From positions 1-64,000 of the forward strand of contig JAUCBJ010003036.1 in assembly GCA_032718475.1 (NCBI GenBank): a stretch of DNA of 64,000 nucleotides, written 5' to 3'. The position numbers and the translations under genes are program-made. The stretch comes from Nemertoderma westbladi. Lineage: Eukaryota; Animalia; Xenacoelomorpha. The stretch's first letter is position 1. The number at the start of each line of letters is the position of its first letter. The notes beneath the pieces are model-generated. The model saw only the letters and a list, made by a program, of their open reading frames with translations, ran no database searches and was not told the origin of the DNA. This document shows, in pieces, positions 19,401 through 51,971 of the stretch.

Positions 19401-19461
19401 CTTCTATCTTCCACCTCGCAGCACAGGAGGAACCAGATATTATCTGACCAACCTTGCGTGC

Positions 19462-22721: not shown

Positions 22722-23111
22722 TGGAGTATCCCGGACAATATCTACTACCAGTTATAACCCACCATTACTTATTATATTGTGATATTGTGTATTGGTGTTG
22801 GGTTGTTATGATTGAACTGACTTATCCTATTTTATATGATTTAACCTATGCGTAGCTACTATAATAATCTACGCGTAGCTGCTATAATACCTACAGCAGT
22901 ACTGCACAGCTGCAGTACTGGTATGCTTTACTGATTACTGAACTACAGACAGAGCAGCAGAGGTATCTGACTGTCTGATAACTACTGACCAATAATTATG
23001 GAAGTGTAATTAATAATAACCTACGCATTGCCCAGAGATATTATATTATTATATTTTATGACACTGGCGTTCTTTTTACTTTTAATATAATGTAAAGTTA
23101 AGAACGATACA
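22722..23111 (+). repeat. Element D 3' LTR
   Basis: Follows the PPT; matches the 5' LTR. Confidence 0.92.
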
Positions 23112-28185: not shown

Positions 28186-28231
28186 CAATAAATAAATATA
28201 TGGCCCGCGTGTATTGCTATGATACAACAAA

Positions 28232-28869
28232 TTAAGGTTTGATTATTTAGAGCAGCAGTAGTTAAAGTACTCCTCTATGGGAGTCCATGCTGGACTCTAA
28301 CTGCTGAGGACACCAAATCTCTGGATGGCACATTCACAACAATGCTACGCCGGGTTCATTGTGTCAAGTACAATGCACACATCTCCAACCAGACACTATA
28401 TAACATTGGAGGTGTCTCATTGGTTCCCCCAAGCTTGACACTAGAACAAAATCGCCTCCGCTTTGCAGGACATTGCTTTCGCCGTGAGGACTAGCCAGTG
28501 CATAATCTTGTACTTTGGCAGCCTCATGGAGTGAATAAGCATGGTGGACAGCCCATGACTTTCTTGAGACGCATCTTAAAGGACACTGGCCTTGAAGATG
28601 CGGATAATCTAGCAAATATCATGGGTGATAGGGCGTTGTGGCGGTGCTATTTTGTCGATAAGCCGGCCCCATCATTCTTAAAAATGCAGCTGCAATGCAG
28701 CATGCCGATCCTAGTAGTAGTAGTAGTAGTAGACACTAGAACAAAATTGCCTCCGCTTTGCAGGACATTGCTTTCGCCGTGAGGAACAGCCAGTGCATAA
28801 TCTTGTACTTTGGTAGCCTCATGGAGTGAATAAGCATGGTGGACAGCCCATGACTTACTTGAGATGCAT
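28232..28869 (+). mobile_element. Second 3' fragment of the (GTA)n-tailed RTE-type LINE plus an internal re-copy
   Basis: 28232-28732 matches ~12963-13489 including the tail; 28733-28869 repeats 28439-28575. Confidence 0.9.
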
Positions 28870-28948
28870 AGGACACCATTCATGGGACACCAAATATAAT
28901 ACAGTCTTACGTGCAAAGTATGATGCATGAATCATACAAAGTATAATA

Positions 28949-29549
28949 CAGTCTCACGCTGCCCTACCCCACAGCCACAGTCTCACGCCGCCCTACCACA
29001 CAGCCACAGTCTCACACTGCCCTACCCCACAGCCACAGTCTCACGCCACCCTACCCCACAGCCACAGTCTCACGCCGCCCTACCCGACAGCCACAGTCTG
29101 ACGCCGCCCACAGCCACAGCCACAGTCTCAAGCTGCCCTACCCCACAGCCACAGTCTCACGCCACTATACCCCACAGCCAGAGTCTCACGCTGCCCCATC
29201 GCCCTACCTGCCGCCCTACCCCACAGCCACAGTCTCACACTGCCTTACCCCACAGACACAATCTCACGCCGCCCTACGTCACAGCCACAGTCGCACGCTG
29301 CCATAACTAACAGCCAGTCTCACGCCGCCCTACCCCACAGTCACAATCTCACGCCGCCCTACCCACCCCCTACCCCACAGCCACAATCTGATGCGGCCCT
29401 AACCCACAGCCACAGTCTCACGCCACCCTACCTGTCGCCATACCCCACAGCCACAGTCTCACACTGCCCTACCTGCCGCCCTACCCCACAGCCACAGTCT
29501 CACGCCAACCTACCCGCCGTACTACCACACAGCCACAGTCTCACACCGC
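28949..29549. repeat. 29-bp satellite, left arm
   Basis: Unit CCCTACCCCACAGCCACAGTCTCACGCCG with variants; continues at 48655 after the nested insertion. Confidence 0.95.
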
Positions 29550-29782
29550 TGTGGTGCACGGGCCGAAATGAGTTCTAGTTGAATAAGGCCCCCATGCAAC
29601 CAAGAAGAAAAGAAGATAGACAGATTTACAGATAAAGTATATCAGTATTGCAGTATGATATTCAAACAGGTTACAGCATTAGGTACAACAGCAGTTCTCA
29701 CATACCGGTAGGTAGGACTATATGTACCAATGGGTTAGGACCACACGACATATCATATATATCTCAATTTGAGTTCCCCACA
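29550..29782 (-). repeat. Element C 3' LTR
   Basis: TGTGG...CCACA; matches 48422-48654. Confidence 0.95.
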
Positions 29783-29849
29783 CTACACCCCCCCCCCCCC
29801 CCCCAGTGTGGTACTTGTATGAAACCTGTACACTCTTGAGTCTTTACAT

Positions 29850-31162
29850 TTAGATGCCCAAGCGTGATGGAAGTCGGGAAAACCTGCCTGACCTTGTGAT
29901 AGTTGGTTGAGGAGCTGAGACCGGAGTCGGCCGAGATGGTGTTTGAGCTGGGATGAATGGGGGCGTTTCTGGACGGAGATGGTTCAGTGGCCGGGTTGGT
30001 GTGTCATCTTTGTTGTCGTTGGACCCATCAAGCCTGGCTGGCTTTAGACGGTCGATCGAGATACACTCAACTTTGTCATTTGGAAACAGAAGCCGATAGT
30101 ATTTGGGAGTACGCTCCACAACAAAATATGGGCCTCTGTATGGTGGCTGGAGACCACGGCGATTCTTGTCCGGTTGCCGAACCCACACGAAGCTACACTT
30201 GTGAAGCTCAGGAGGAATGTAGGGAGCACCACCGGTATTGTGGAGTACAGGAGGCAGGCGCAAGTCAGCCATGGCACTCTGTAGGCGAGGAAGGAAAATA
30301 CTTTGCCGTGAGTTTCGGTCTTGGATAAGCCCAGGAGGTGGTGATTCATGGAACTGACCAGGAACCGAGATTGGGGCACCAAACACCAGTTCGCATGGAG
30401 CAGCGCCGATGTCCTCTTTGATAGTGGTACGGTAGCCCAGCAGGACTGTGTCTAGCTCGTCCGCCCAGTTGTCGGAACCCTCCAGCCGGGCTCGCAGGCC
30501 ATCCTTGAGCTGCCGATGCAGCCTCTCAACCATCCCATTGGCCTGTGGATGGAAGGCAGTGGTAGTCGTGTGCTGGGTCCCCAAGATCCTGTTCAAAGCC
30601 GCCCAGATCTCCGCAGTGAACTGGCTGCCCCGATCTGAGGTGATCCTCTGAGGGACTCCAAACCGTGCAACCCATGCGCTGAACAATGCTCTGGCACAGT
30701 CATCTGAGGTCGGCGGTCCAGCCATTGGAATCACCTCACACCATCTGGTAAAGCGGTCAATGATGGTGAACAGGTGGTCAAAACCCCGAGACACAGGGAG
30801 AGGGCCAACTATGTCAACATGGATGTGCGCAAAGCGCTCCAGGGGTGCATCGAGGTGTTGGAGTGGAGCCCTGGTGTGTTTGGAGATTTTGGCATACTGG
30901 CATGCGTGGCACGTCTGTGCCCACTGAATACAGTTCTTTCTCATGGAAGGCCAGACGTATTTGGAGGCCACCATCTGGGCAGATGCCCGGGCTTCAGGAT
31001 GCAGTGGTGCGTGCAATGCCTGGAAGATTCGTCGACGCCAGGATGCTGGAACGAATGGCCGCGGTTGACTGGTCCGTCTGATGTTGCACCAGAGGCTGAC
31101 GCCATTGTCGGCACTTCGTATCTGTCGCAAGACGAGGCCGGTGGCCAAGTCTCCAGCCTGAA
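29850..31162 (-). pseudogene. pol: Element C pol, integrase part (separated by the B insertion)
   Basis: LHAPLHP...CHAC, HVDIVGPLP, TSDRG and NGMVER motifs; removing B restores the in-frame junction DLTRLLQ-AGDLATG. Confidence 0.93.
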
Positions 31163-31688
31163 TGTGACGGGATCTACGGATCCCGGTTTATCGGTTGGGT
31201 TTTCTATCCAAGCGTCCCCGCCGTGTGTGAAAGGTAAAAGAGTTCTGGTGTTCGGTTATATGTATAAGGTATAATAGTCTGATATATATATAGTATAACA
31301 CAACAGGTAATATAAGTATGATGGCGGTAGCGGACGGTGACAGAAGTCCCCGTTCCACCCTACTGATCTGACTGAGTAAACTGAATGAATGATTACAGGT
31401 TACTGGTTATATTGCACGGTGGCCTTATTGCTCCTCAATCGATGCCTTGCCCCCCTCTGATTGGTTGATATCCCTGTTGGCACCCTTTGGAGTGTTTCCC
31501 TTCACTCCCTGTGTTCTCTCTCGGTTAGGGGTTTGGCCCCTGACCCTTATTGTGTGTGTCTCCTTTGGGGCCTATTGTCCCCGTTTACTGGGCTGACACG
31601 AGGTTGACTGGTAATCAACCTCGTGCTCCCAATATTGCTTTATGGCTCACTCTATGGGTTTGTGTTAGCGGAATTGGATAAGCTAACA
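31163..31688 (-). repeat. Element B 3' LTR
   Basis: Preceded on the minus strand by the PPT; matches 44847-45372. Confidence 0.93.
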
Positions 31689-32049
31689 CTCCCCCCCATG
31701 CTATCTTCCCGGTGAGAAGATAGCATCCAACTCAAGTGCGCTACAATTCCGCTGGATCCCGATCTATTATCGGGTGTGGGGTGGGTCTATTTTTTTTCGG
31801 AGTCGGCTTTCCAGGCCGCTCCCTATGGGTATGATGTCACTACCCTCTGGCGTCTCGTGTCGGGCCGATCGTGCGCTTCTTTCACACAATTTTTGTTTCC
31901 CCAACACTCTCACCATTCTACTCCAACTCTCGCATACCCCCGGACCTCCTCGTCCCACACTCTTCCTCTCACTTCTCCTCCCCCACACTTGAATTGCGCC
32001 CACGCTCTCTTCGCACTCCGCACTATTACTCCATCCCTCCTTGTCACTC

Positions 32050-33520
32050 CCTAAGGCTTTAATCTCTAATGCTACCCCTGTGCTATCATACTATCTACCT
32101 ACTGCTTACTAACTCTAACTATCTAACTAACTCTGCTAACTACTAACTCTTACTACTTCTAGCTCTAACTGAGAGCCTCTAACTTTCTACTGACTCTAAC
32201 TCTCTACTAAGTCTAACTAACTCCTACTAACTTTCTACTTCTACTAACTCTACTTGACTCCTCTGAGTCTACCAACTCTGCTAACTAGCTCTACTAACTC
32301 TACTCCACTAGCTCTGCTAACTCTACTCCACTAGCTCTGCTAACTCTACTAACTAGCTCTACTAACTCTACTCCACTCTTCTAACTACGTGGCGCTTGCG
32401 GTGCCCACAACCATTCTACTATCTGGCACCCTATGTGCCCTTCTACTACTCAACTACCTCTCTAACTTACTACCTGGCACCCTATGTGCCCGTCTCTACT
32501 CTTCTACTCTCTGGCACCCTATGTGCCCGTCTCTACTCCTCTACATCCCCTTTACGTCTCATCGCCTACACGTGACGCTCTGAGTGCCGGCAGAGCGGGT
32601 ACGTTAATTATGTGAACTACTACTGACTCTACTAACTCTCTTCTAACTCTACTAACTCCTTTTGTGCCCGGCACCTCTTGTGCCCGGCACCTTCTAACTC
32701 TACTAACTCTCTTCTAACTCTACTAACTCTTTTTGTGCCCGGCACCTCTTGTGCCCGGCACCTTCTAACTCTACTAACTCAACTAACTCTACTACTAACT
32801 CAACTAACTCTACTACTAACTCTTTTTGTGCCCGGCACCTCTTGTGCCCGGCACCCACCCTAATTAACATACCCTGCTCTTACATCAAACACGTCATCAC
32901 GCCCGTGCCCCACTAAGTTCAGCGCATTCCCTACTAACTCTAACTACGTGGCGCTTACGGTGCCCACAACCCTCTACTGCTACTACTAACACCCCTAACT
33001 AGCGGTACTACGTACCCTCTTACTACTCTTACTCTCTAACGGTACTGCGTACCCCTTAACTCCTATTCTCTAACGGTACTGCGTACCCTCTTACTACTCT
33101 TACTCTCTAACGGTACTGCGTACCCCTTAACTCCTATTCTCTAACGGTACTGCGTACCCTCTAACTCTTACTCTAACTAGCGGTACTTACGTACCCTCTA
33201 ACTCTAACTACCTAGCGGTACTTACGTACCCTCTAACTCTACTAGCTAGCGGTACAACGTACCCTCTTACTACTCTAGCTCTCTCTACTAGCTAGCGGTA
33301 CTACGTACCCTCTTACTCTTACTCTAACACTAACTGTCAGTGCTAACTGACTAACTAACTAACTCTGACTCTAGGTACTACGTACCTCCTAACTAACTCC
33401 TCTACTAACGGTACTACACGTACCCTCCTACTAACTCTTCTACTAACGGTACTACGTACCACCCTTTAACTAACTAACTAACTAACTCTTACTACCTAAC
33501 TTCTACCTACTCTATTATTT
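32050..33520. repeat. Low-complexity 3' region of element B (CTAACT/CTACT repeats with GGTAC..GTACC and GTGCCCGGCAC motifs)
   Basis: Seen directly. Confidence 0.85.
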
Positions 33521-34240
33521 AATTATTTTCTTATTTTAATTAAATAATCATTTTATATTTTGCGCGTGGGAAGGGCGTCTCGCCCTCATTCCCACCCCCC
33601 TCAGTCCAAAACTTTGGACGACTAAAAACTCTCACGTGCCCCTTCTTCCGGTAGGCACTCTCCTGCTGCCCTCCTATACGTCCTCTAACTCTTCGCCACA
33701 CTCTCTTCGGTGCTACCTTTGCTGGCCTCCCCCTTCGTATGTGCGCTGGCATTAAAGCCCTCGACGACCCCCGCTCGTCCCTCGGTATACGCGGTGTCTG
33801 CCCGTGCAATGCCCCCTCGCACTGTGTCCGTCCTGCGTGTGTATGCAACACGCCTCCTTCTACTTTCCCGACTCCCTTTTTTTTTCAATTTTCAATTTAT
33901 TTTTCCTTTCAACAATTTCCTATTTCAGTACAATCAATACAAACATTGGATGAAGGTGATGGTGATGACGAAGTAGCAGACAATAGCGAAGCTAGTATAG
34001 CCTGCTACTCCGACTGGAAATTGATGGGTTGGAGGTGGGGTGGGGGGGGGGGGGTGGGTGGGCGTGTCTGCTCCTCTAGAATTTGTCTGGTTTTTGAGCT
34101 TTATTGTATGAGATATAATTGATGGTCAGCCGAATAGTGTAGCAGTAGCATTCTGGGATAGAAGACTTTGAGAGGCAATAAATGGCAGCGACTATAATAA
34201 AAGATACGTGGTGAGATATAAAAAGTGGGCATGGGCCTAA

Positions 34241-37200
34241 CTACAGGGACATTAACAGGTGGTATTTATACGCTGACGAAAATGCTTTTTTTGATTTTGA
34301 GTGTTTTAATTGAGATGGTAGTGCGTTCCAAATTGAAGGGCCTTGATAATTCATGGAAGCTTTGGAGGAAGTTAGGCGGACCTTCGGAATAGAGAAACCA
34401 TCCGTAGTAGCAAGGCGAGTTGGATATCTGTGTACAGAGGAAATTTTGGTGAATAATGAGCCTAGAGTAGAATCAGGTTTAAATAAGTTAGCGTTTACAT
34501 CGTACATGAGGGATCCTACTTGGTGCTTATAGAGGAGGTCAATAGGTAGGATGCCGAGAGACTTATAGATAGGTTTAGAAGAAGCTCGGTAGTGCGAGAA
34601 AGTAATACAGCGGAGGAGTTTGTTTATTTTTATACGTAGGGGTTGTAGGGTATAAGAATGGGTTTTGCCCCAGAGTAGAATGCCATACAATAAATAGGGG
34701 TGTACAAGTGAAAAATATAGTTGGCGAAGTATACGAAGGGGAAATATGTGACGCAGTTTGTAGAATATTCCGGAGGTTCTAGAGATTTTAGACGTAATAT
34801 GTTTAATGTGAGATTTCCAGTTTAAGTTGTCATCTACTAGAACCCCTAGAAATTTAGAATGTGGTTTCCGAGTAATGGGGGAATGGTTAATTAGTATTGG
34901 GTCGGAGTGAGTATTAGGGTAATTAGAGTATATAGCATATTCAGTCTTAGATAGATTGAGAGATAGACGGTTGTCTGATAGCCAGTCCGCAATCTTAGAT
35001 AATTCAGAGTTAGTTATGGAGATTAAAGAGTCCAGATTAGGTTTAGCTATATGAAGAGTTGTGTCGTCAGCAAATAATGTTGAGATTAGTGAGGTAGCAT
35101 TGGGAAGGTCGTTGATATACAATAGGAATAGGATTGGCGAGATAGTGGCGCCTTGTGGGACACCACATGTAATAGGTAAACTAGAAGAATGGTGGTTACC
35201 GATAGAAACAAATTGGGTTCTAGAATCTAGGAAGCTTGAGAGTAGTTGCTGTGGTATTCCCCGGATACCATAGGAGTTTAGCTTAGAGGTTAGGATAGAG
35301 TGATCAATAGTGTCGAAAGCCTTTTTTAGATCTATATAGATAGCACTGGTGAATAGTTTTTGGTCTAAGTATTTGTGAATATTCTCTACAACGGATAGCA
35401 GAGCATGGGATGTTGTAGATTTAGGGCGAAAGCCGAATTGAGAATTAGACAATATGGAATATTTTTTTAGGTACGAGAGTAGTTGGTTATTAATTATGGA
35501 TTCGTACAGTTTGCTTATTACGGGTAGAAGAGAAATAGGTCGGTAGTTATTAGTGTCCGATGGGTCGGCACTCTTGAATACGGGAATGACTTTGGCCGAT
35601 TTAAGAGCCTTAGGGAAGAAGCCTTGAGTTATCGATAGGTTAATTAGGTGAGATAGATGAATAGATAGTAATTTAGCAGACAACTGTAATAGTTTAATGG
35701 GGAAACAATCATGAGATGCAGATTTGGGGTCTAATTGGAGGATTAGATATTCGACTTCGACAGGGGATGTCTCTACCAGTGAAAATGAGTTAGAGCGAGT
35801 GTGGTTAATGAAGCGTAGTGGGGAGCGGTTGGATTTAGGAATATCGTTGGCTAGTTTAGGTCCTATGGTAGTAAAGTGTAGGTTGAAAGCTTCAGCAATT
35901 TGCTTTGGGTCGGTGATGGTTTTGGCAGAATTATCAGTACGGATAGTTAGTTTTTTTGGAGTATTTAAATGTTTTGTTTTATTTAATGCAGAGTTTATAA
36001 TTATCCATGTTTTGCGTATGTTACCTGAGTTAGTTTCGAATTCACTAGAGTAATAGGCCTTCTCGGCAGCCCTTAGAGTAGAAGTTAATTTATTCCTATA
36101 GGTTTTGTAAGCAAGAGTATTAGCAGGGGTAGGATTCCTAATGTAAATTCTGTATAATTTGTTTTTATTAATGGAACTTTTAATAAGATTATCAGTCATC
36201 CAGGGTTTAGATAATTTTTTACGGGGTGGAATAGATTTCTTAGGTAAATGTTTGTCGCAGATAGAATTAAAATCGGAGTAGAAAGAGTCTAGTTTGTCCT
36301 TGTCGGCTATAGTTGGAGTTAGATAAGACCAAGATTTACTACTGGCTACGTCTCTCAGAAATTGATCCTTGTTAAAACGCGAGTAATCGAATATTGTGTG
36401 TGGAGCTGCTGGATGAAAGTAACAGGAGTACTTCTGGAGGATAACGAATGTAGCATAGTGATCAGAAGTGCCTATTTGTGAGTTAAAAGTACCGGCTGTA
36501 GTAGTATAATTAGTAATGTTTGTAAGTATATGATCTATAAGAGTTTCAGAGTGTATTGTCTGATCGGGTAGTTCATTATGAAAAACACGTGTAGGTTGGT
36601 TGATAAGTTGTATAAAACCGTAGGAATTAATGAGGTCAGTATAGGATTTGGAAGTAGTGGTTGATTTTAGAAGGTTAATATTAATATCTCCTGTGATAAT
36701 TACATCATAGTTGTTTTTAGTAAGTTCAGTTAGAGCTAGATCGAGTAATTCAAGAAAATCAGTAGGGAGTACAGAATGTCTACGGTAAATAGTGCCTAGA
36801 ATTAAGGGCTTGGCATTTTGTGGTCTTTTGATTTGCACCCATGAATTTTCAAGACCATTCATTTTTAAATCAGGACGTGGGGACACATCCAGGGATTCCT
36901 TGACATAGATAGCAGTACCACCACGATTTAATTTGTCGCCTGTTTTCCGGATGTCAAGATAAGGGGTGTGAAAACCGGGAAAAGTGATTTCATTTAAATT
37001 TGAGTTACTGTCTAAAAAAGTTTCTGAAAATGTGATGACATCGAATTTGGTAGTTAATGTTAAGAGAAAAGTTTCAATATCAGATTTATTTTTGGGTAAG
37101 CTGCGGGCATTAAGGTGGAATATTTTTAGGCCTGTATTATCTAAATTTTTAAAGTCGTTGTTAAAAGTATCTTCTGTAAAATAACCGTTATTTATATTAA

Positions 37201-37522
37201 GTGAGACTGTATTATTTTCGGGGTCAAGCTGGCTAAATGTTTGGTTTATAATGTTTGAGTCTGTGTCATCATTTATTTCAGGAGAAAAATAGTGAAAAAT
37301 GTCGCTGTCATTATTGTCTACAACGGAAAACGGAAATATATCGAAATTACAGAATATACAGTAGACATAGGACATTGGGGTGGCTTCTATCTCAGAGCTG
37401 GATTGGTAAGATCCACATTGTGCATGATATGAATGGCCGCAAATATTACATTTAAAGTAGTAGTCCGAGGAGATAAATTGAGAGAAGCAGAGCGCGCATG
37501 AAGGGGTAGAAGGTTCATGCAT
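34241..37522 (-). CDS. LINE ORF2: PHD finger, APE endonuclease, reverse transcriptase
   Basis: 1093-aa uninterrupted ORF: CALC..CNIC..HAQC..CIFC, HLNARSL, FSETFL, GDIN, SDHY, NYRPISLL, DLKKAFD, GVPQG, LFADDT. Confidence 0.95.
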   Translation of the reverse strand: MHEPSTPSCALCFSQFISSDYYFKCNICGHSYHAQCGSYQSSSEIEATPMSYVYCIFCNFDIFPFSVVDNNDSDIFHYFSPEINDDTDSNIINQTFSQLDPENNTVSLNINNGYFTEDTFNNDFKNLDNTGLKIFHLNARSLPKNKSDIETFLLTLTTKFDVITFSETFLDSNSNLNEITFPGFHTPYLDIRKTGDKLNRGGTAIYVKESLDVSPRPDLKMNGLENSWVQIKRPQNAKPLILGTIYRRHSVLPTDFLELLDLALTELTKNNYDVIITGDININLLKSTTTSKSYTDLINSYGFIQLINQPTRVFHNELPDQTIHSETLIDHILTNITNYTTTAGTFNSQIGTSDHYATFVILQKYSCYFHPAAPHTIFDYSRFNKDQFLRDVASSKSWSYLTPTIADKDKLDSFYSDFNSICDKHLPKKSIPPRKKLSKPWMTDNLIKSSINKNKLYRIYIRNPTPANTLAYKTYRNKLTSTLRAAEKAYYSSEFETNSGNIRKTWIIINSALNKTKHLNTPKKLTIRTDNSAKTITDPKQIAEAFNLHFTTIGPKLANDIPKSNRSPLRFINHTRSNSFSLVETSPVEVEYLILQLDPKSASHDCFPIKLLQLSAKLLSIHLSHLINLSITQGFFPKALKSAKVIPVFKSADPSDTNNYRPISLLPVISKLYESIINNQLLSYLKKYSILSNSQFGFRPKSTTSHALLSVVENIHKYLDQKLFTSAIYIDLKKAFDTIDHSILTSKLNSYGIRGIPQQLLSSFLDSRTQFVSIGNHHSSSLPITCGVPQGATISPILFLLYINDLPNATSLISTLFADDTTLHIAKPNLDSLISITNSELSKIADWLSDNRLSLNLSKTEYAIYSNYPNTHSDPILINHSPITRKPHSKFLGVLVDDNLNWKSHIKHITSKISRTSGIFYKLRHIFPLRILRQLYFSLVHPYLLYGILLWGKTHSYTLQPLRIKINKLLRCITFSHYRASSKPIYKSLGILPIDLLYKHQVGSLMYDVNANLFKPDSTLGSLFTKISSVHRYPTRLATTDGFSIPKVRLTSSKASMNYQGPSIWNALPSQLKHSKSKKAFSSAYKYHLLMSL

Positions 37523-38100
37523 GGGGCGTTTAGTAAAGCGGGTGAGATGACATGAAATGATAAGCGAATGATGTTAGTAGTAATATTAACCACTATAAAT
37601 CATGACGTATACACCTGACTGACATGACATAATATATCAATTAATTATAAGAAATATTTTAGAACTAACAGTAATATATATATATATATATGTGAATGGG
37701 ATAATCAAAAACGGTATTAATTTAAATTTGACTTTATCCGTAATAAAGGTTTTCATCAGAAAGAAAATAAAATAAAGTAAAGATTGGTCCGTTCAAAACT
37801 TAGAGATAGGGCTAGTGTTTTTCATTTGTGGCGATTATTATCTTTCTGTTAAATAGTCCAAATGGATCTATGGTTGAAACATATATAAGTTCAATTATTA
37901 TCCCTTCAAAAAAAAATTTTAACCTACGATACCGGTACGCTTACATAGAATAACAACAAATTAAAGGCTAACAGAGCCAATAGTACAGTAATAGCCCACG
38001 ACCAATACTGCAATAGGTGAAATGAAGCTGCAACAGTACAGTGGGTAGTACATGACATCGCTCAATACTGCATTCAGTGTCGAGTTAGGCTCGATTCGAA

Positions 38101-38808
38101 TTATCCAGAAGAGTTTGGGATTGGTGGGCTACGACGATCAATGGTTTTCCTAGTTGGTAGGGTAGTCAACGACTCAAGGTCGGATTGGTTCGCAATGCGC
38201 AGTGGTAAATCATTTTCTTTAATGCGAATCATAACAACTCCATTGAATGAATATACCGCTCGTATTTCGTGTTTACGTTGTAGCTCACGCGCTTTGTTGT
38301 ACAGCTCAGCCCGGGATGGAATTAGATGTTCCGTTACGTATAACGGATTTGGCAACGATTTTTTACTCCGGATAGCTTGTAGTCGAGAAGCGTGGCCTAG
38401 AAGGCGTATTATAATAGGGCGACATTTAACTTTACCGTCTCCAGCAGCCCTTTCCTTGATTTTCTTGCCTAGCCTGTGGAACACATCGATCATAGAAGGA
38501 GGAATTCCGAGTTTATTTGTAATATCAAAGACAGCGGAACGTTCTTCATCTGGGTTGGTGTTTTCTGGTACAGCATGAATTAAGATATCGTGACGGCGAG
38601 AGTACTGGGCCAACTCTTCGTTTTCTGCTTTTAGCTGCTTGTTTTCTTTGACTAGATGATCAATGTTTTTTATCATGCCGGGGATAATCTTTAGAGTATC
38701 TTTTATTGCCGCGACGTCGTCTTTGATACCACTGAGGGATTTCAATTCGCTTTTAAGGATTTCGAGAGAATCCAGAATATCGTCACCTACGTCTTGCCAT
38801 CGAGTCAT
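38101..38808 (-). CDS. LINE ORF1 (coiled coil plus RRM-type nucleic-acid binding)
   Basis: 235 aa with LAQYSRRHDILIHAVPE, FHRLGK, RPIIIRL and YVTEHL motifs typical of L1/CR1-type ORF1. Confidence 0.85.
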   Translation of the reverse strand: MTRWQDVGDDILDSLEILKSELKSLSGIKDDVAAIKDTLKIIPGMIKNIDHLVKENKQLKAENEELAQYSRRHDILIHAVPENTNPDEERSAVFDITNKLGIPPSMIDVFHRLGKKIKERAAGDGKVKCRPIIIRLLGHASRLQAIRSKKSLPNPLYVTEHLIPSRAELYNKARELQRKHEIRAVYSFNGVVMIRIKENDLPLRIANQSDLESLTTLPTRKTIDRRSPPIPNSSG

Positions 38809-38989
38809 TTTGTGAACAGTTGGTGCGGAGGGTCGGTGCTGGCCAACGAGTTTAGCGTCTTACCGGTATCGCGGTAGTTACAGAGTTAGGCCTAATTATT
38901 TTGGAGATCAGCCAGTCTGTCAGTCAGTTGCCTACATCAAGTGAAGTACCGGTACCTGTACATCACCACTCAATCCAAATCATCAATAA

Positions 38990-41900
38990 TCAATTATTTT
39001 TATCAAAATCACATTTCTGTTTAATCTTGTTATTCTTCCTTCGTTTCTCAACAGTTATCCATTGGTCAGAAGAAATTGGAGTAAAAGATTCTGCTATTGC
39101 AGGTAAACAGGTGTTTATTCGACGACCAAACATTAAAGTAGCTGGAGCTACACCGGTTGAAGAATGTTGAGATGCAGCTAATTCCATAAACCCTTGAGCG
39201 AATTCATCTGAATGAAAGTCGCCATCAACTCGTTCTAATAATAACTTGACCTTTTTCACTGCGGCTTCTGCAGATCCATTGCTTTGGGGAAATTTTGGCG
39301 AACTAGGGCACCAATGGATTGACCAAGTTTTGAACCAAATCATCATTTCTTCTGATGAAAAACAAGTTTGACCATCAGATCTGATTACTTGAGGTACTCC
39401 ATACTCCATGAATAATGCGCGAAGTAGTTTTTTTATATATGATGATGATGTTGACTCATCGCAAAGGCGAATCCACAAGAATCCTGTTAACTCATCAACA
39501 ATTATGAGAAATTCCTGGCCCCCATACTTTGCAAAGTCCGTGCACAATACCTCCATTGGCCTTGTTGCACAAGGATAGGGAGTGAGTGGTTCAGCCGGAA
39601 GTGCTGGTCTAGATCTCTGACATGCATGACACTCATTCACCACTCGTTCAACGTCATCTCCAAGTCCAGGCCAATAGAAAAGTTCTCGTGCTCTAGCTTT
39701 CATCTTCTCTATTCCTGTGTGTGACTTGTGTAATTTACTCAATAATTCTGGTATTAATAATTGAGGAGGTATAAGCCGCTGGTTTCTGAGGATAACTCCA
39801 TCATTTCCAACTGTTAACTCATGTTTTATCTTTTTAAATTTTCTTGAATAATTGTTTTTTGAGAAATCGCCGGTATTTAATGCTACTATCAGTGATTGGT
39901 AATCCTGGTCTTCCATAGCCTTTGATCGTACCTGATCTAATCCTCTGTTGGGTATGAACTCTTTAACTGCTTCAGTCACGGCTGCTGCACAAATGGTTGC
40001 AAACTGATCAATATCAGTATTATCATCTTCATCTGGAGGTGAACAAGGGTATCGAGATAATGCGTCTGCCACATTATTTTCTTCTCCTTTTTTCCACTCA
40101 ACTGTAAAATTAAATCCAGTGAGTTTTGTTCGCCAATTTAGTATTCTTTTATTTTCTATCTCTGCAAGACTTTGTATATTGAAGATTGTCGTCAGTGCTC
40201 GGTGATCGGTTTGGATTGTGAAATGTGGACATCCCTCAACGTATATTTTAGTTTTGTTAATGGCCCAGTAGATTGCCAATGTTTCAAGTTCTACTGCTGC
40301 ATAATTTTCTTCTGCCGATCGTAACATGCGGCTGCCACATTGAAGTAGTGTCCGTGGTTCATTCAACTCCCCCTCCTGGAAGAGAGCAAATCCAAGTCCA
40401 CAAGTACTTGCATCTGTTTCTAAGATGAGATGTTTACCTCGTTCAAACATTCCGAGAATAGGTGGTGACAATAAAATATCCTTTGTTTTTTCCATTGCCT
40501 CAGTGTGTTCTTGTAACCAATGAAATGTGTTACGAGTTTGTAATATATTTCGGAATGGGGTCATTGTTTGTGCTAAATTTGGAATAAATGATGCCATCTG
40601 GTTGGCTAAACCAACAAATGAGCGTAAGTCTGTTCTTGTCTTTGGAATAGGAAATGACCTAATAGCTTCCACTTTACGTGAATCAGCTGTAATATGTCCA
40701 GCTGATATATGATAGCCAACAAAGTCAATTTGTTCTGTCGCCAATACACTCTTTGTAGAACTAATTGTGAACCCATGTTTCACACAACGTTCTAGAACTT
40801 CTGCCACATTTAGAACAAGTTCAGGTAATGTCTCCTTTCCAATAGCAATATCATCCATGACTTTCGATAAGTCATCAATGCCATTGAGTGCCACATCCCC
40901 ACGGAATGAAAAGGCATCTCCAGTGCTGGAAAAACCCATGGGACTACGTAAAAAGCGAAATTTACCTTTATTTGTTAGAAAAACGGTCATCCAGGAACTT
41001 TCATTATCGAGCTCCATTTGCCAATATCCTTTTACGAGATCTATTTTAGCAAAGAATCGGTGGTTCCGTTGAAACACATTCACAGCCTCCGCAGGTGTGG
41101 GTACTCTATGGATAGTGCGATCTATCTGATCATTGAGTTTCTTCAGGTCAACACAAATACGGACATCTCCTGATGGTTTGCCAACAACCACCAGTGGGTG
41201 ACACCATGGTGTTGGTGTATCCCCAACAGGTGTGATGATTCCGCGATTCAACATATAATTTAAGGCTTCATCAACCTTTTCCTTCAAATGAATTGGGATT
41301 GGTCGTGCTGCTGTAATGGCACTTGGAGTAGCATCTTCCTTGAGAAAAAAATGCATTGGTTCTCCAACTATGGGGAACTCCTTATGTTTGCTCATGGGCT
41401 TCTCTGCCCCTGGTCTAGTCCTTTCACATCCTCTCCCTTTCCAACACTCTCCGGATCTGTGTCCTTTTACCACACATCGATGACATAGTCCGTTTGCATC
41501 TGTGTAGGCTACACGATCTCGTTTGGGCAACGCTTGCCAGTACTTGCAACTCCTGGTCTTATGGGTTCCGTCCCGATGTAATTGACATTGGAATCCTGGA
41601 TTATAGCGTTTCCTGTATAGTCCTTCACGTATCGCGCTTAGGTTTATATGTACCGATTTAATGTTTTGGTTGTCTAGACTCGGCCTACTGGGTATATTGG
41701 GATTGTGTTTATTTTTGGTGTTATTTTCTTTCTGTCCCTGCCACGGTGTGGTCCTACTACCAGCTAACTGTGGACTGGTAGTCCCCTGTACGGCCGCGTG
41801 TGGTGGTGACTGTCCGCACGACCTGCTCTCGTCCAGGGAGTTCGATGTTCTTGCTCCTATCGGGGTATATTGTCGATATTGTGATGGGGGAATGTCACCC

Positions 41901-42832
41901 TGTCCCCCCCCAGCCGGTATGTTTGGTACTGGGGTTGATGTTAATATATTGGGGCCCATACATCTATCTCCAATAACTCCCCCCTCCCCTGGATATATGT
42001 TATGTCCCTGTGTATTATAGTCATGCTGCTGTACCGATATAGGCCTACCTACCTCTCGCCTACCTACCGGTATGTACTCCGCGGCTCCCGGGTTTAACCC
42101 CGTCGCTCGCGCTACCCCATCGCCTACTCTATCTCTCCCAGCATGGCCTATAATAGTATGTGCAGTAAGGCCTACAGTATGTCCTGCAGTCTGCATGTGC
42201 CCTTTGGAACCGAAGTTTATTCTTCGCGAATCTCGAATCTCCCCGCGACTACTGCACTCTCGATCGGCAGCTATATCCCGTCGGGAAGCTTCTCTCCGAT
42301 CCCCTCTCCTGTTCTCGACTCTGTATTGGTACGTCTTGTACCCCTCTCTTGGCGTGCGGTGCGTTTCTCCGGGGCGACGGCAATCTCCCGAAGTTCGACC
42401 CCACTGGCTCCCTGACTCCATCTCTACTGTCGACGGTCCGTTATCCGTCCTCGCACTGCTATCGTTCGTGGCGACACTTCTTCTACTATCTTCTCTTCTT
42501 CTCTTTTCTGTGTAGTATTCCGGCTCGTGAGGTCTCTCGTCGACTTCCCGGTTAAACTCCACTGTTCTTCTTCTCTCTTCTGATCGGGCTCGACGCTTCG
42601 TCTGCCCTCTCGCGACGTCAACCTGCCTCTCTCTGCTCGATCGCACGCCGCTGGGGACACTCGCAATCCCCCTATTACTCTCCGTCGCCGGGTGTTGCGG
42701 TTTACCTGATTCGGCCCGCGCATTATCCGCTGACGGCTGTGGGACACTCTCTGCCCCCCCTCTCTCTCTACTAATCTCTCGCGGTGGGGTGCCCGTAGCC
42801 CCCCCCCCCCCACCCGCCACTTCTAACTTCAC
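38990..42832 (-). CDS. Chimeric ORF: low-complexity N-terminus and BEL-type zinc knuckles fused to Mag-like Gypsy RT-RNase H-integrase
   Basis: 1280 aa open; CQLHRDGTHKTRSC and LCHRCVVKGHRSGEC, then KIDLVKGYWQM, VMDD, TDAS, VELE, TDH, H-H-C-C, TDFA, RSDG, SNGSAE; no protease or capsid. Confidence 0.85.
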   Translation of the reverse strand: MKLEVAGGGGGATGTPPREISRERGGAESVPQPSADNARAESGKPQHPATESNRGIASVPSGVRSSRERQVDVARGQTKRRARSEERRRTVEFNREVDERPHEPEYYTEKRRREDSRRSVATNDSSARTDNGPSTVEMESGSQWGRTSGDCRRPGETHRTPREGYKTYQYRVENRRGDRREASRRDIAADRECSSRGEIRDSRRINFGSKGHMQTAGHTVGLTAHTIIGHAGRDRVGDGVARATGLNPGAAEYIPVGRREVGRPISVQQHDYNTQGHNIYPGEGGVIGDRCMGPNILTSTPVPNIPAGGGQGDIPPSQYRQYTPIGARTSNSLDESRSCGQSPPHAAVQGTTSPQLAGSRTTPWQGQKENNTKNKHNPNIPSRPSLDNQNIKSVHINLSAIREGLYRKRYNPGFQCQLHRDGTHKTRSCKYWQALPKRDRVAYTDANGLCHRCVVKGHRSGECWKGRGCERTRPGAEKPMSKHKEFPIVGEPMHFFLKEDATPSAITAARPIPIHLKEKVDEALNYMLNRGIITPVGDTPTPWCHPLVVVGKPSGDVRICVDLKKLNDQIDRTIHRVPTPAEAVNVFQRNHRFFAKIDLVKGYWQMELDNESSWMTVFLTNKGKFRFLRSPMGFSSTGDAFSFRGDVALNGIDDLSKVMDDIAIGKETLPELVLNVAEVLERCVKHGFTISSTKSVLATEQIDFVGYHISAGHITADSRKVEAIRSFPIPKTRTDLRSFVGLANQMASFIPNLAQTMTPFRNILQTRNTFHWLQEHTEAMEKTKDILLSPPILGMFERGKHLILETDASTCGLGFALFQEGELNEPRTLLQCGSRMLRSAEENYAAVELETLAIYWAINKTKIYVEGCPHFTIQTDHRALTTIFNIQSLAEIENKRILNWRTKLTGFNFTVEWKKGEENNVADALSRYPCSPPDEDDNTDIDQFATICAAAVTEAVKEFIPNRGLDQVRSKAMEDQDYQSLIVALNTGDFSKNNYSRKFKKIKHELTVGNDGVILRNQRLIPPQLLIPELLSKLHKSHTGIEKMKARARELFYWPGLGDDVERVVNECHACQRSRPALPAEPLTPYPCATRPMEVLCTDFAKYGGQEFLIIVDELTGFLWIRLCDESTSSSYIKKLLRALFMEYGVPQVIRSDGQTCFSSEEMMIWFKTWSIHWCPSSPKFPQSNGSAEAAVKKVKLLLERVDGDFHSDEFAQGFMELAASQHSSTGVAPATLMFGRRINTCLPAIAESFTPISSDQWITVEKRRKNNKIKQKCDFDKNN

Positions 42833-43707
42833 TATTTCTTACTACACTTCTATACCCCTCTTGTGGAACATTCTCTGCCCCCCCTCTCTCGCCACTAATC
42901 TTATGTGGTGGGGCGCCCGTAGCCCCCCCCCCACCCGCCACATCTAACTTCAATATCTCTTACTTCGTCTCTACACCCCTCTCTAGTCGACGCGCTGTCT
43001 CTACTACGGCTGGGTCTATTCACCCCCGCCTCCCTCTCTACTACTGCGTGGCCCATCAGGCCTACTTCGGGTTGGCTCAACCCCGCTACCTCCTGCCTAC
43101 TAACTACGTGGCCTGCCAGGCCGCCGTCGGGTTGGCTCAACCATGCCACCTCCTGCCTACTAACTACGTGGCCTACCAGGCCCCCGTCTGCCGGGTTATG
43201 TACGTCCGACACGCTCACATTAATAGCACCATTCCCAATATTATTTGTTAAATCAATTAAATTATTAGAATTTGAAACGGGATTATTATTTAAATTATTT
43301 AAATTACTTAGATCACTACCATTCTCTAAACTTAAATTATTATTCGAATTATTTTGCGAGTTTGAATTGAAATTATTATTTAGAGTATTTGTATTTAAAT
43401 TACTACTACCTGGTAAAATATTATTATTTCCTGTAATAAAGGGATTAGGGTTATCTACTACGGTACTATTAATATTAACATTTCTTAACGTACTACTACT
43501 ACCCCCCCCCCCCCCGCCCGTACGGCTACACCAGTTCTGGCTCTCTCGCCCGGTGCCTGTAAGTGGGGTCTCACTCTCTGACAGTTCCAACCGCGCCAGT
43601 TTTAGTCGGCGCTGATTCAGTTCGGCTTGATATTGCGCAAGCCTCCCTATCCGGGCACATAAATCATCCCGCTCACGCTCTTTCTCTATCTCTCTCTCTC
43701 TGTACCC

Positions 43708-44757
43708 TCATAAACTTTGCTCGGCCGTCTCTCTCGCAAGCATATCAAACCAGCTCGCCGGCTCGCTCTCTACTCTCATCTCCCGATCTCTACGCTCCTC
43801 GGCTCTCTCTCTATTCTCCCTTGCAAACTCTAATAATCTGGTTTCACTCCTCAGTCGCCCCTCTAACTGTTTCTGCTCTGCCGCCGCCATTCCTAATTTA
43901 AACTTTAGATTTATCTTCAGCACCCTTCTTTCTTTCGCGGAGGATGTAGCAGACTTATCGGTTGCGACGGACTCCCGTCGCCCCTCCGTCCTACCAACTT
44001 TCCCCCGCTTCCCGGAACTTCCTCCAACCGACGAGACCGAATCCTCGGAGTTAACCTCGGATTCGCCCTCCCCAGGTCTCTTCCAACCCACTAACTTAAA
44101 TTCCCTGGCATCGACTAAGTATGGCCCTATGTACACTACACCAGGCCCCATACCCCTACGTTGCCATAGCCAAAACAGTTCGAAGGCAACCCCTCTCGCT
44201 CTCTCCCTGGCCAGTTCTCCCTGCCCAGAACGCACTAGGTGATCAAAGTATCTGTTCGACTCACCTAGTCGTCTCCTCAGTCTCACCTCGTCTATCTTCG
44301 CCCCTCCTTTGGCCTCTCTCAGTTGCTCCCGGGTCGCGAGGTAGGCCCGTCGAAGTCGATCAGAAACCCCGACGTCCTCGTCGCCGACCTCTCCTCCGTC
44401 TCTCCGGGTCCGACGTCGTACCGACGGCCCCACCGTCGCCGTTCCGGTGGACCGTTCGTCGTCCTCAGCCTGTGGCTGGCCGGTGACATCGGTATGTCGA
44501 CCCTCACTCCGCGTCGACTCGTCTTTCTCTTCTCCTCCCTTCTCGTCTCCTTCCCTCGACTCGCTCTCCGGTTGTAGACGACCCCCCACATCTTGGTTCG
44601 CCGGGTTGCTCGTTATCGACGTGGCGTCAACCTGCGTCGACGTGGTCGGCGTAGCATCGATCGGCGTCGTGGGTTCGTATCGTCTCGCCGTGGCCTCGCG
44701 GATCGTTAGATCGTCGTCCGGGGTCCGCGGCGGTGTCGTTCCTCTATCTCGACTCAT
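43708..44757 (-). CDS. First ORF of element B, charged/low-complexity protein of unknown function (possibly an extended Gag N-terminus)
   Basis: 349 aa starting ~90 nt after the LTR; GQGELARERAR...YIGPYLVDAREFKLVGW is conserved in element A (23856-24416). Confidence 0.55.
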   Translation of the reverse strand: MSRDRGTTPPRTPDDDLTIREATARRYEPTTPIDATPTTSTQVDATSITSNPANQDVGGRLQPESESREGDEKGGEEKDESTRSEGRHTDVTGQPQAEDDERSTGTATVGPSVRRRTRRDGGEVGDEDVGVSDRLRRAYLATREQLREAKGGAKIDEVRLRRRLGESNRYFDHLVRSGQGELARERARGVAFELFWLWQRRGMGPGVVYIGPYLVDAREFKLVGWKRPGEGESEVNSEDSVSSVGGSSGKRGKVGRTEGRRESVATDKSATSSAKERRVLKINLKFKLGMAAAEQKQLEGRLRSETRLLEFARENRERAEERRDREMRVESEPASWFDMLARETAEQSL

Positions 44758-44846
44758 CTTCGTCTTTAGTAGCTGGTCGTCGCTAGCTAGGACGGTAGCT
44801 CTATTCTATCTCTGTCAGGGCAGCTGGGCGGATCTGATTCTGTCAC

Positions 44847-45372
44847 TGTGACGGGATCTACGGATCCCGGTTTATCCGTTGGGTTTTCTATCCACGCGTC
44901 CCCGCCGTGTGTGAAAGGTAAAAGAGTTCTGGTGTTCGGTTATATGTATAAGGTATAATAGTCTGATATATATATAGTATAACACAACAGGTAATATAAG
45001 TATGATGGCGGTAGCGGACGGTGACAGAAGTCCCCGTTCCACCCTACTGATCTGACTGAGTAAACTGAATGAATGATTACAGGTTACTGGTTATATTGCA
45101 CGGTGGCCTTATTGCTACTCAATCGATGCCTTGCCCCCCTCTGATTGGTTGATATCCCTGTTGGCACCCTTTGGAGTGTTTCCCTTCACTCCCTGTGTTC
45201 TCTCTCGGTTAGGGGTTTGGCCCCTGACCCTTATTGTGTGTGTCTCCTTTGGGGCCTATTGTCCCCGTTTACTGGGCTGACACGAGGTTGATTGGTAATC
45301 AACCTCGTGCTCCCAATATTGCTTTATGTCTCACTCTATGGGTTTGTGTTAGCGGAATTGGATAAGCTAACA
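44847..45372 (-). repeat. Element B 5' LTR
   Basis: TGTTAG...GTCACA on the minus strand; flanked by the CTGAA TSD. Confidence 0.93.
45064..45095 (-). promoter_or_regulatory. Putative TATA box plus Inr of LTR B
   Basis: Minus strand TATAA (45091-45095) and TCAGT (45064-45068). Confidence 0.6.
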
Positions 45373-47460
45373 CTGAAGGAGTCGGGTTAGGTCTGGATCA
45401 GTCTTCTGAGCTTTTGCCATGTCGGCAAAATCGATAGTGACTGGCAGGATGGGTGCTAAGTCAATGGCATCGTTCGTAAACGGTGTGGATGCAGCATCGG
45501 AGGCTGACCTCGACATTGCGTCGGCAACAGCATTGTCTCTCCCTGGAAGGTGCACCAGGTCAGTAGTAAACTCGGAGATGTAACATAAATGGCGGATCTG
45601 GCGTGGTGTCCTATCTGCAGATGATGTGATGACGCCGACCAATGGTTTGTGGTCGGTAAAAACAGTGAATTTTCGCCCCTCGACGTACCAGGCAAAGTTC
45701 CTGATGGCCAGGTAGACTGCCAGTAGCTCACGATCGAAGGTGCTGTATTTAGTTTCAGCCAACTTCATTTTTGCTGAAAAGAAGGAGAGAGGAACCCACA
45801 TTCCATCCTGGAATTGTTCAAGGACAGCGCCGACTGCACGGTCAGATGCATCTGTGGAGATAGCAGTAAGGGCTCCCTCTCGGGGAAAAGCAAGAGTCGC
45901 GGCATTGAGCAGCAGCATCTTGACCTCCTGAAATGCATGAAACTGGGGCCAATTCCACTCCAGTCGTGTTGGTTTACCTGCCAGAACCTTGTGGAGAGGT
46001 TGGAGGACGTGGGCGGCATGGGAGAGGAAGCGTCTATAGAAGTTTATGACACCCAAGAACTCCTGAAGGTCTCTGACTGTTACCGGTTCTGGGTACTGCT
46101 GGATTGCATCGATTCTGTCAGATGGTGGGTGGATGCCATCAGCAGAGATGGAGTGTCCCAGGATTGTGAGACTAGGAACACCGAAGACACACTTTTCAAG
46201 GTTGATCACCAGCCCATTTGCTGCGAGACGCCCACATAGCATCCTGACATCCTTCTCATGGTCAACCATCCCACAACTACCGATGAGAATGTCGTCCTGG
46301 TAGGGCTTGGAGGCTGGCACTGGTTCGCATACCTCATCCATCAGTCTCTGCTGTGCCTGAGATGCATTGGACAGTCCAAACCCGACTCTGGTAGACTCGA
46401 ACAGGCCGAACGGAGTCGTTATTGCTGTCTTTGCTATGTCGTCTTCATGGACAGGGATCTGATTGTAGGCGCGTTTGAGGTCAATCTTAGTAAAGAGATT
46501 GCAACCTGCGAATGTGTGTGCAAAGTCCTGGATGTTGGGCAGTGGGTATGAGTCATCCTCTGTGATTGAGTTCAATTTGCGGTAATCACCGCATGGGCGC
46601 CAAGAACCATCTGGCTTTGGCACCATGTGGAGTGGGCTGCTCCAGGCGCTCTTGGACCGCCGCATGCTGCCATCGGCAACTTGCCCAAGAATGACTCTCT
46701 TGGCAATTGCCAACTTTTCAGGAGAGAGTCTGCGTGGTTTCGACCGGACAGGCGGCCCATGGGTAGGTATATGGTGGGTTACACCATGGGCGACTGTCTT
46801 CGAAGAGAAATCTGGCTGAGTAATCGACGGAAACTCGGCCAGGATGTCATTCCAGCGACTGCTGGAAGATGGCAGGAGGGAGGAGATGCTTGGGCAGTGC
46901 CCATATGCCAGGATCTGGAGGGAGGCAAAGTCGATGCAAACACCCAAAAAGCGGAGGATGTCTAGGCCAATGATAGGGCAGATGACATCGGCGACAGTGA
47001 ACAACCAAGAAGTCGGTTCATGGTGTGGCAGTGCCACAATCTGTCGCCTGAATCCATAAGTTTTGATGTTGGCACCATCTGCTGCACGGAGCGACCCGGT
47101 AGGGTCGCCATAGCGGTCCCCCGCAACAGCGGGAAGGACGGAAACAGTTGCACCCGAGTCGACCAGGAATTTGACACCAGACTCCTGGTCCCGGACATAC
47201 ATGAGAGAGGCCCCAGCACTATAGGCGGACCCACCTACAGCATAGATCGACCCATGGAGGAAAAGCAACGGTTCGACGGTGCCGTTGTCTCGCACATGAG
47301 AGATCAGGCCATTGTAGTTGACGCCGGTCGCCTTGCCTATTGGCGACCGGCACGTGCGTTTCCCGCCGATAACGACTTGGGTGTCGAGGAAGCGGATGGA
47401 TGGGAACATGGATCGTGGCATGTGCGGGCAGCATTGCCGAAACGGGTGTGGTAAAAGCAC
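45373..47460 (-). pseudogene. pol: Element C pol, PR-RT-RNase H part (interrupted by B)
   Basis: FLVDSGATVS, KIDLKRAYNQI, YQDDIL, TDASDRAVGA and ADAMSR in one open frame. Confidence 0.93.
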
Positions 47461-48386
47461 ATTCCTTTGCTCGCCGAGACTGTGTTCCAGTCTTTGTGTG
47501 AGCGGAAGCTGCCGGCTGGGGTTTTCTGCGACTTGGCAATCATATAGGTAGTAGCAGCCATCGGAGACTCCCGGACGATGATGTCGGCCTTCTCCGCATA
47601 AATCTCGAGTGGAATAGTATCATCCGCCATGATCCGGCGGACTTCAACCGGCATGCAGGACATGAAGTGTATGCGGAAATCGGTTGACTGTGGGGCATCT
47701 GACAGCGCCTCCATGCGGGCGAGCAGATGCGATGGCTTTTGGTCGCCGAGCGAGACGATCTTGGCCAGATCCTGTGCACGGTCGTAGCTCGATTTGGCAA
47801 AGAGGCGGATCAGTTTCAATTTCAGTTCGAGGTAGTTTGTGCCAGCATTGTTGGGATGAAGAACCTCGTTGTTTACCAGGTCGAGTGTGCTGTCATCGAT
47901 ATCAGCGATAAGTCGGACAAACTTATCCTGGTCTGCCACTATTCCCCTCTGCTCGAATGCGCTCTCGACTCGGACGAAGTAACGGCGAATTTCGGTGGTC
48001 GAGAATGGCGGTAGTTTAAATGGGAGAGGGACTTGGTGGGCGATCGCCGCTCTGGCAACTCCTGCCTGGAGGATAGGAGACTGTTGGATGATGGCGGTAG
48101 CAGCATCAGCGTGGGTTGGCGGAACCGTCGCATCGGCTGGCTGACGATCTCTGTGAGCTGGGGTAGGCATTTCGAGGGCTTCCACAGCGGCGAGAGCATC
48201 GGCTGGGCCCACATGGAGAAGGGCCAAGTTGCCCGGGTCCTGTCTGATCAGCAGGATAGCAACTGGGTTTTGGGTGAGGGCTGCCGCTGCGACTTGGGCA
48301 TTGTGGATGAGTTGTTCCGCCTCTTCCCTCAACTCGTGGGGGGCGTTGGCGATCGCCTGGATTTGGTCCGCCAGCAACTTCACCAT
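47337..48386 (-). CDS. gag: Element C Gag
   Basis: 349 aa with FKLPPF, LGDQKPSHLL and CFYHTRFGNAARTCHDPC (CHCC); overlaps the pol frame. Confidence 0.9.
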   Translation of the reverse strand: MVKLLADQIQAIANAPHELREEAEQLIHNAQVAAAALTQNPVAILLIRQDPGNLALLHVGPADALAAVEALEMPTPAHRDRQPADATVPPTHADAATAIIQQSPILQAGVARAAIAHQVPLPFKLPPFSTTEIRRYFVRVESAFEQRGIVADQDKFVRLIADIDDSTLDLVNNEVLHPNNAGTNYLELKLKLIRLFAKSSYDRAQDLAKIVSLGDQKPSHLLARMEALSDAPQSTDFRIHFMSCMPVEVRRIMADDTIPLEIYAEKADIIVRESPMAATTYMIAKSQKTPAGSFRSHKDWNTVSASKGMCFYHTRFGNAARTCHDPCSHPSASSTPKSLSAGNARAGRQ

Positions 48387-48421
48387 TATGCTGCGAGTTC
48401 AGATCTCGTCTGGGTCACCAG

Positions 48422-48654
48422 TGTGGTGCACGGGCCGAAATGAGTTCTAGTTGAATAAGGCCCCCATGCAACCAAGAAGAAAAGAAGATAGACAGATTTA
48501 CAGATAAAGTATATCAGTATTGCAGTATGATATTCAAACAGGTTACAGCATTAGGTACAACAGCAGTTCTCACATACCGGTAGGTAGGACTATATGTACC
48601 AATGGGTTAGGACCACACGACATATCATATATATCTCAATTTGAGTTCCCCACA
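48422..48654 (-). repeat. Element C 5' LTR
   Basis: Followed on the minus strand by the tRNA-Trp-type PBS. Confidence 0.95.
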
Positions 48655-49786: not shown

Positions 49787-49856
49787 TACTACTACTAGGA
49801 TTGGCATGCTGCATTGCAGCTGCATTTTTAAGAATGCTGTGCCGGTTTATCGACAA
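49787..49856 (-). mobile_element. 70-bp 3' tip of the (GTA)n-tailed LINE inside the satellite
   Basis: Reverse complement of ~13415-13485; flanked by CAYGCCGCCCTAC on both sides. Confidence 0.9.
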
Positions 49857-51901: not shown

Positions 51902-51971
51902 TACTACTACTAGGATTGGCATGCTGCATTGCAGCTGCATTTTTAAGAATGCTGTGCCGGTTTATCGACAA
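51902..51971 (-). mobile_element. Duplicated copy of the 70-bp LINE tip
   Basis: Identical to 49787-49856 with the same flanks, offset 2115 bp. Confidence 0.9.

Follow-up and report, generated by a model that had tools for sequence, protein, structure and literature searches.

A 7.5-kb cassette in the 64,000-nt stretch of Nemertoderma westbladi DNA analysed here (the window) raises the question of how a continuous piece of Gypsy pol and a same-sense LINE came to lie end to end inside a third retroelement. We find that a single insertion, ending at the LINE tail and flanked by a 5-bp duplication, is the best single reading of the cassette. We tentatively suggest, as an account that falls somewhat short of probable, that it arose by one LINE 5′ transduction, in which target-primed reverse transcription (TPRT) by the LINE would have inserted a read-through RNA carrying the Gypsy pol.

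Nested retroelements in the window

Retroelements and satellite occupy the window nearly throughout, and all readings given here are based on one locus, on a distant relative of the host element in the same window (element A) and on distant homologues. The nesting order is Gypsy C, then element B within it, then the cassette within B (Table 1). Gypsy C (29544-48655) encodes a DUF7041 gag and a pol; B interrupts it between RNase H and integrase, and the frames of C that were checked are free of stops. A large C-rich satellite is found on both of its flanks (48650-64000 and 28947-29550), and C was therefore inserted into the array.

The LTRs of element B differ at 5 of 527 compared positions, and B gave no Pfam hits. 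B and element A are colinear, with an identity of about 60-75%. A contains the BEL gag domain DUF1759 (E=8e-8), and its protease resembles a protein in which DUF1758 is weakly recognized. Since B is homologous to A, which carries a BEL gag and a BEL-like protease, we assign B to BEL/Pao, and on this homology B is a BEL-derived non-autonomous element. The DUF1759 gag region of A is missing from B. One stop codon interrupts the long upstream ORF of B, as does a shift of frame at a tandem duplication of about 122 bp (42738-42982, 43708-43710), so that its first ATG (44757) is not connected to the pol fusion by any single frame. Primer-binding sites for tRNA usually begin with TGG; the sequence that follows the 5′ LTR of B (44815-44846) starts otherwise. 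The 3′ region of B (31690-33530) is about 1.8 kb of non-coding sequence with short strand-skewed repeats.

Element A (about 13500-24700) is a degenerate, BEL-derived relative of B in which gag and protease were found and RT was not. It is interrupted by Gypsy D (LTRs at about 17973-18366 and 22718-23111, 6 mismatches) and includes a tandem duplication of about 245 bp (23626-24113). Elsewhere in the window, a tandem array with a 53-bp period (6349-8947) adjoins a LINE (ORFs 8840-11249), and two truncated copies of another LINE family, about 90% identical, lie at 11827-13489 and 28229-28869, the latter with its 3′ part internally duplicated.

Table 1. Positions in the window of the cassette, its parts, its flanks and the elements around it
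Feature	Position	Strand	Remarks
Gypsy C terminal repeats	29544-29783 / 48416-48655		240 bp, 2 mismatches
Element B 3′ LTR	31163-31688	-	5-bp duplication 31158-31162; polypurine tract adjoining
Element B 5′ LTR	44847-45372	-	Duplication 45373-45377
Left flank in B	33715-33870	-	Homologous to A 13964-14113
Left ACTCC	33871-33875		Candidate target-site duplication
Right ACTCC	41377-41381		Candidate target-site duplication; 2 nt from the edge of pol homology
Rival 8-bp repeat	33872-33879 / 41433-41440		Three of its bases belong to the tail; right copy 57 nt beyond the pol edge
LINE 3′ terminus	33877-33904	-	Polyadenylation hexamer, two TTGA-type units, A9
LINE 3′ UTR and tail	33877-34240	-	364 nt
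LINE ORF2	34241-37522	-	AP endonuclease, RT, N-terminal PHD/RING-like finger (weak); no stops
LINE ORF1	38101-38808	-	About 235 aa, no stops; weak coiled-coil-type and weak Baculo_FP_2nd hits
Probable LINE 5′ leader	38809-38995	-	About 190 nt; 5′ end not fixed exactly
Pol/LINE junction	38970-39001	-	Tail-like; three ATTGA units, the only such cluster in the cassette
Gypsy pol fragment	38990-41374	-	RT, RNase H, H2C2, integrase core (rve); truncated at both ends
Element B ORF with zinc-knuckle region	41377-42838	-	Homologous to A; first ATG 42421
Stretch of A missing from B at the cassette position	14114-15170	-	BEL-like protease 14590-15093

The Gypsy pol fragment

The pol fragment is a single stop-free frame of about 2.4 kb in which RT, RNase H and integrase follow in the order of a Ty3/Gypsy pol. 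Homology to its relatives runs from 41374 to about 38996, and a stop codon stands at 38990-38992. Its best relatives are 42-46% identical and include two Tigriopus proteins; the first-pass annotation had labelled it Mag-like. Gypsy D (18477-22445) was considered as the donor and rejected at 42-45% protein identity.

Both ends of the fragment were compared with relatives. Over the 25 residues upstream of the pol edge, seven relatives that share a boundary motif gave a summed score of 11 against a null mean of 11.4 (p=0.31), and the same seven scored 229-307 against each other. The upstream residues are thus at chance, which places the 5′ edge of pol within 2 nt of the right ACTCC. An extension of pol homology to a short motif near 41401, suggested by some tblastn hits, was rejected since it scores at chance; base composition did not place the right edge between 41377 and 41401. 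The first-pass annotation had pol start abruptly at the beginning of RT, of which the sharp edge holds good, but the edge lies about 60 codons ahead of the Pfam RT domain. At the other end, 49 relatives were examined and 19 dropped by identity, reach or length filters; all 30 that were retained carry a further 47-308 residues, which makes a natural integrase stop at 38990 unlikely and bears out the proposal that pol ends inside the integrase C-terminus.

No gag, protease or integrase C-terminus was found in the interior of B with 12 Gypsy relatives as queries, the fragment itself being the only match, and a DNA self-search returned no LTR pair for pol, as had been noted before. The pol piece is likely dead, because a protease and an integrase end are missing from its sequence. 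Its frame is open across the 5′ junction and joins the zinc-knuckle ORF of B in frame (38990-42838, 1,282 codons), a fusion expected in one of three cases by chance.

The LINE

A LINE in the same sense as pol does adjoin it, as first proposed, with both ORFs open. It has the traits of the CR1/L2 group, namely two ORFs, an AP endonuclease and RT in ORF2 and a short-repeat tail, and from this layout we take it to be of CR1/L2 type. No match to ORF1 was found among PDB sequences, and Tnp22 was not detected in it. The hits of ORF2 were nearly all to unnamed sequences; the best relatives are 31-39% identical, and several of them have a Pfam PHD; the PHD hit at the start of ORF2 itself is below the cut-off. 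An AT-rich stretch of about 580 bp lies between the ORF1 stop and the first ORF2 ATG (37574-38100). Comparison of the leader with the four LTRs in the window gave no significant LTR remnant (best p=0.02 in 8 tests).

The tail was compared with 80 related loci, 40 of which reach past the end of ORF2. With an automatic rule, 20 of the 40 were scored as having a tail, some of them plainly in error, and 2 as having a strict TTGA repeat; by eye, ATTG/TTGA-type repeats follow the hexamer in 6. As a tail of this form is typical of its relatives, the tail is probably the LINE's own and its sequence a natural end. The A-rich tail that had been placed at about 33877 is a LINE tail at that position, although it is composed of a hexamer, TTGA-type units and A9, and one extra base (33876) separates it from the left ACTCC.

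Repeats and flanks of the cassette

Both copies of ACTCC are present where the first-pass annotation had placed them. In B-like sequence such a repeat would occur by chance in 2.3-3.7% of cases with the right edge pinned down to 3-5 nt, and in 20-30% with an edge free to float over 30-50 nt. An 8-bp repeat competes with it, and taken as the duplication it leaves 57 bases of the insert unexplained. Other repeats bracket the LINE alone. Positions 38983-39001 match the tail (33885-33904) at 17 of 20 aligned bases, forming an imperfect repeat of 19-20 bp, and among 742 cassette windows scored against the tail only this one and a spot near 37060-37080 score that high; an exact 8-mer pair also brackets the LINE alone. 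The first-pass annotation had named a duplication around only the LINE as evidence against one event; the imperfect, tail-like repeat bears on this and may conceal such a duplication. ACTCC brackets the whole cassette. The tail-like bases at the junction would fit either a donor target similar to the tail or additional nucleotides acquired at the junction.

Homology between A and B halts at 33870, the base that adjoins the left ACTCC. On the right, the best match joins 41378-41419 to A 14180-14215, but its score was not significantly above that of dinucleotide shuffles under any of the 24 settings used (p 0.07-0.76), and of 351 49-mers drawn from B as controls, 5% reached the same score. A simpler shuffle of bases yielded p=0.013, in one test whose window was picked after the fact. 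The earlier suggestion that the empty site would resemble A around 14100-14215 is not upheld, since only the left flank aligns and the right flank is at chance. The next firm anchor past the right flank is the zinc knuckle, where 41444 aligns with 15171. The interval between the two anchors measures 1,058 bp in A, a distant relative, and contains the protease; in B it amounts to 74 bases once the cassette is set aside. B shows two losses of about 1 kb relative to A within its 5.66 kb, and by our own arithmetic an independent insertion would land within 74 bp of such a loss in about 5% of cases. As aligned, the cassette coincides with an apparent internal deletion of about 1 kb in B relative to A, and this points to capture by template switching of an LTR element.

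Searches for further copies

In protein collections no same-species copy was found of pol (best 46%) or of ORF2 (best 31-39%), and a peptide spanning the pol/LINE junction gave matches on its RT side only (39-52%). A metagenome scan with the junction peptide confirmed none of 38 candidate stretches, and a scan with an ORF2 alignment gave 80 distant loci (best segment 46%); no loci matched in viral contigs. The literature searched, which was not matched on the name 5′ transduction itself, contained no CR1/L2 case that carries the pol of an LTR element, a weak result.

Discussion

The order and sense of the parts, the intact frames, the truncation of pol at both ends, the natural tail and the 5-bp repeat can all be read directly at this locus. 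The reading that we favor, one 5′ transduction, would begin at a donor locus where a Gypsy integrase gene carried the LINE in the same orientation, at a site like the LINE tail; a donor target with microhomology to the tail would fit the tail-like junction. A transcript started upstream in the Gypsy would have run through pol and finished at the LINE tail, and ORF2 would have nicked B and copied first the LINE (5.1 kb) and then pol over 2.4 kb before halting early, leaving the 5-bp duplication. Two features support this, namely that the cassette ends at a natural LINE terminus, without the missing integrase residues after it, and that the sharp 5′ edge of pol lies so close to ACTCC. Duplications made by ZfL2-1 are about 5 bp (PMC4245944), ZfL2-2 in wild-type cells left a duplication at 20 of 25 inserts with long target deletions rare (PMC2666801), and most human LINE-1 chimeras with 5′ transductions have their parts in the same sense and are nearly full length (10.1101/2025.02.02.635956). 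The reading is weakened because the right flank lacks a match to the adjacent sequence of A, because A-B homology halts at 33870 and neither donor nor sister copies were found in the collections searched, and because the cassette lies near the deletion in B, a coincidence of about 5%. It is weakened further by the rarity of full-length L2 inserts (2 of 33 for ZfL2-1; PMC4245944), 7.5 kb being longer still, and by that of 5′ transductions, which make up less than 1% of new human L1 insertions (PMC9341517) and are short in SVA (mean 172 bp; PMC12593883), as well as by the rival 8-bp repeat and the imperfect repeat around the LINE alone. The single 5′ transduction of the first-pass annotation therefore still leads on tail, ACTCC and sense, but it has lost the support of the empty site and has to face the deletion in B and the LINE-only repeat.

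The annotation had missed one rival, LTR-mediated capture, which we consider unlikely and yet the foremost competitor. While a BEL-family RNA was being reverse-transcribed, the enzyme would have switched at the tail onto a co-packaged pol+LINE read-through RNA, copied 7.5 kb and switched back, replacing the protease region of B; B would have integrated with the cassette already inside, and ACTCC would be due to chance. The cassette stands where A has its 1,058 bp with the BEL-like protease and B its 74 bases, although A is only about 60-75% identical to B and the family of B may have lost the protease independently. The cassette is also in the same sense as B and in frame with its ORF, which chance would grant often enough anyway, and B retains both LTRs and its own integrase-type 5-bp duplication, as equally expected if the cassette came later. 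In a survey of LTR-mediated retroposition, captured copies take the place of some of the ORF sequence of the element, and their flanks are discontinuous (PMC5131818). Dating the cassette by its intact frames proved uninformative, with about 1.3 nonsense changes expected and the older Gypsy C likewise without stops in checked frames, and these frames are no proof of youth relative to B. Against capture, the switch must have occurred exactly at the LINE tail, whereas poly(A) tail and duplication are absent in all 15 LTR-captured Drosophila retrocopies of the same survey (PMC5131818), and ACTCC must be an accident of 2-4%. Priors lean to capture, given the rarity of full-length L2 copies and of long 5′ transductions. 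A LINE insertion, then, has to accept the deletion coincidence, and capture both the accidental repeat and the switch at the tail; 5′ transduction and capture need the same donor transcript.

An improbable variant dispenses with the donor locus: ORF2, once it had copied the LINE RNA, would have jumped to a separate Gypsy RNA, entered it internally, copied 2.4 kb of it and joined the target. The marks at the ends would be the same as under 5′ transduction, LINE template-switch chimeras inside one duplication are documented (PMC2104539), and the ATTGA units repeated at the junction could represent scars of the switch. The deletion coincidence is shared, however; the pol piece stops inside a run of codons and not at a known RNA end, and the LINE is nearly complete, whereas in human U6-type chimeras the LINE part is often 5′-truncated (10.1101/2025.02.02.635956). 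Because the LINE is near full length and the pol end internal, read-through is favored over template switching among LINE-made insertions, and a LINE-made insertion of either kind is, in our judgement and not by computation, somewhat more probable than not. Slightly less probable than the LINE template switch are separate events, with pol entering B first (by LTR template switch, DNA repair or as a LINE-made retrocopy with a tail-like end) and the LINE inserting later at the 3′ end of pol, its own duplication concealed by the tail. The 17/20 match of 38983-39001, rare among cassette windows, and the exact 8-mer pair speak for this order. However, T runs excepted, the LINE 5′ end shows no match of at least 5 bases to the sequence beyond the tail, and the tail, being of a form typical of relatives, is probably the LINE's own; the LINE must also have struck the pol end with an error of no more than a few bases, or else a long and precise deletion must have followed, such deletions being rare for ZfL2-2 in wild-type cells (PMC2666801). 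Because separate events would require two such closely placed hits, or else such a deletion, one RNA-templated event is in our judgement likely. An assembly misjoin of repeats could be entertained in a window that consists almost wholly of repeats, but it is very improbable, with the LTR pair, duplication and polypurine tract of B coherent around the cassette, the segments of B colinear with A and every cassette frame open.

We conclude that the composite is real and unusual, probably a dead single copy produced by a known class of mechanism: the individual mechanisms are already known and their combination is unusual. It seems highly doubtful that B and the cassette form a mosaic of three superfamilies, a BEL shell with its protease-pol swapped for a Gypsy RT-RNase H-integrase that is joined in frame to the gag knuckle, and with an intact LINE, which has moved to other sites as a 14.2-kb unit. 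If 5′ transduction is correct, a CR1/L2-type LINE copied 7.5 kb at once and carried most of the enzyme gene of another retrotransposon, which would extend long 5′ transduction past primate L1 and SVA and offer a route for domain swapping among retroelement superfamilies. If capture is correct, a whole Gypsy+LINE transcript was taken up by a BEL particle.

Among known systems, 5′ transduction by L1 and SVA likewise has same-sense foreign sequence 5′ of a near-full-length element with a 3′ tail, and there one duplication surrounds cargo and element, for which the cassette has only the candidate ACTCC (10.1101/2025.02.02.635956; PMC9341517; PMC12593883). Here, by comparison, the carrier is a CR1/L2-type LINE, the candidate duplication is 5 bp and not about 15 bp, the cargo is 2.4 kb of continuous Gypsy pol and not a short flank or spliced exons, and another LTR element served as target. 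LTR-mediated retroposition (Tan et al. 2016, PMC5131818), which accounts for about half of the young retrocopies in mosquito, zebrafish and chicken, one of them inside a BEL element, also leaves a foreign same-sense insert in a non-autonomous LTR element with both LTRs kept; there the insert replaces a coding part, as it may do in B. The present insert differs in its LINE tail and candidate duplication, which the 15 Drosophila cases lack, and in that its cargo consists of other retroelements and not of host mRNA. LINE template-switch chimeras (U6/L1; Magnaporthe WEIRD/MGL, PMC2104539) are similar head-to-tail RNA copies with the LINE 3′ and short direct repeats, whereas here the LINE is near full length and its partner is an internal coding fragment of an LTR retrotransposon. 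The LINE itself resembles L2 subgroup 5, described (PMC4120745) with a Tnp22-type ORF1 and a PHD at the start of ORF2, in its short ORF1 and in the PHD-like finger that opens an ORF2 with APE and RT, and it departs from that layout in its ORF1, without a detected Tnp22, and in its sub-threshold PHD hit.
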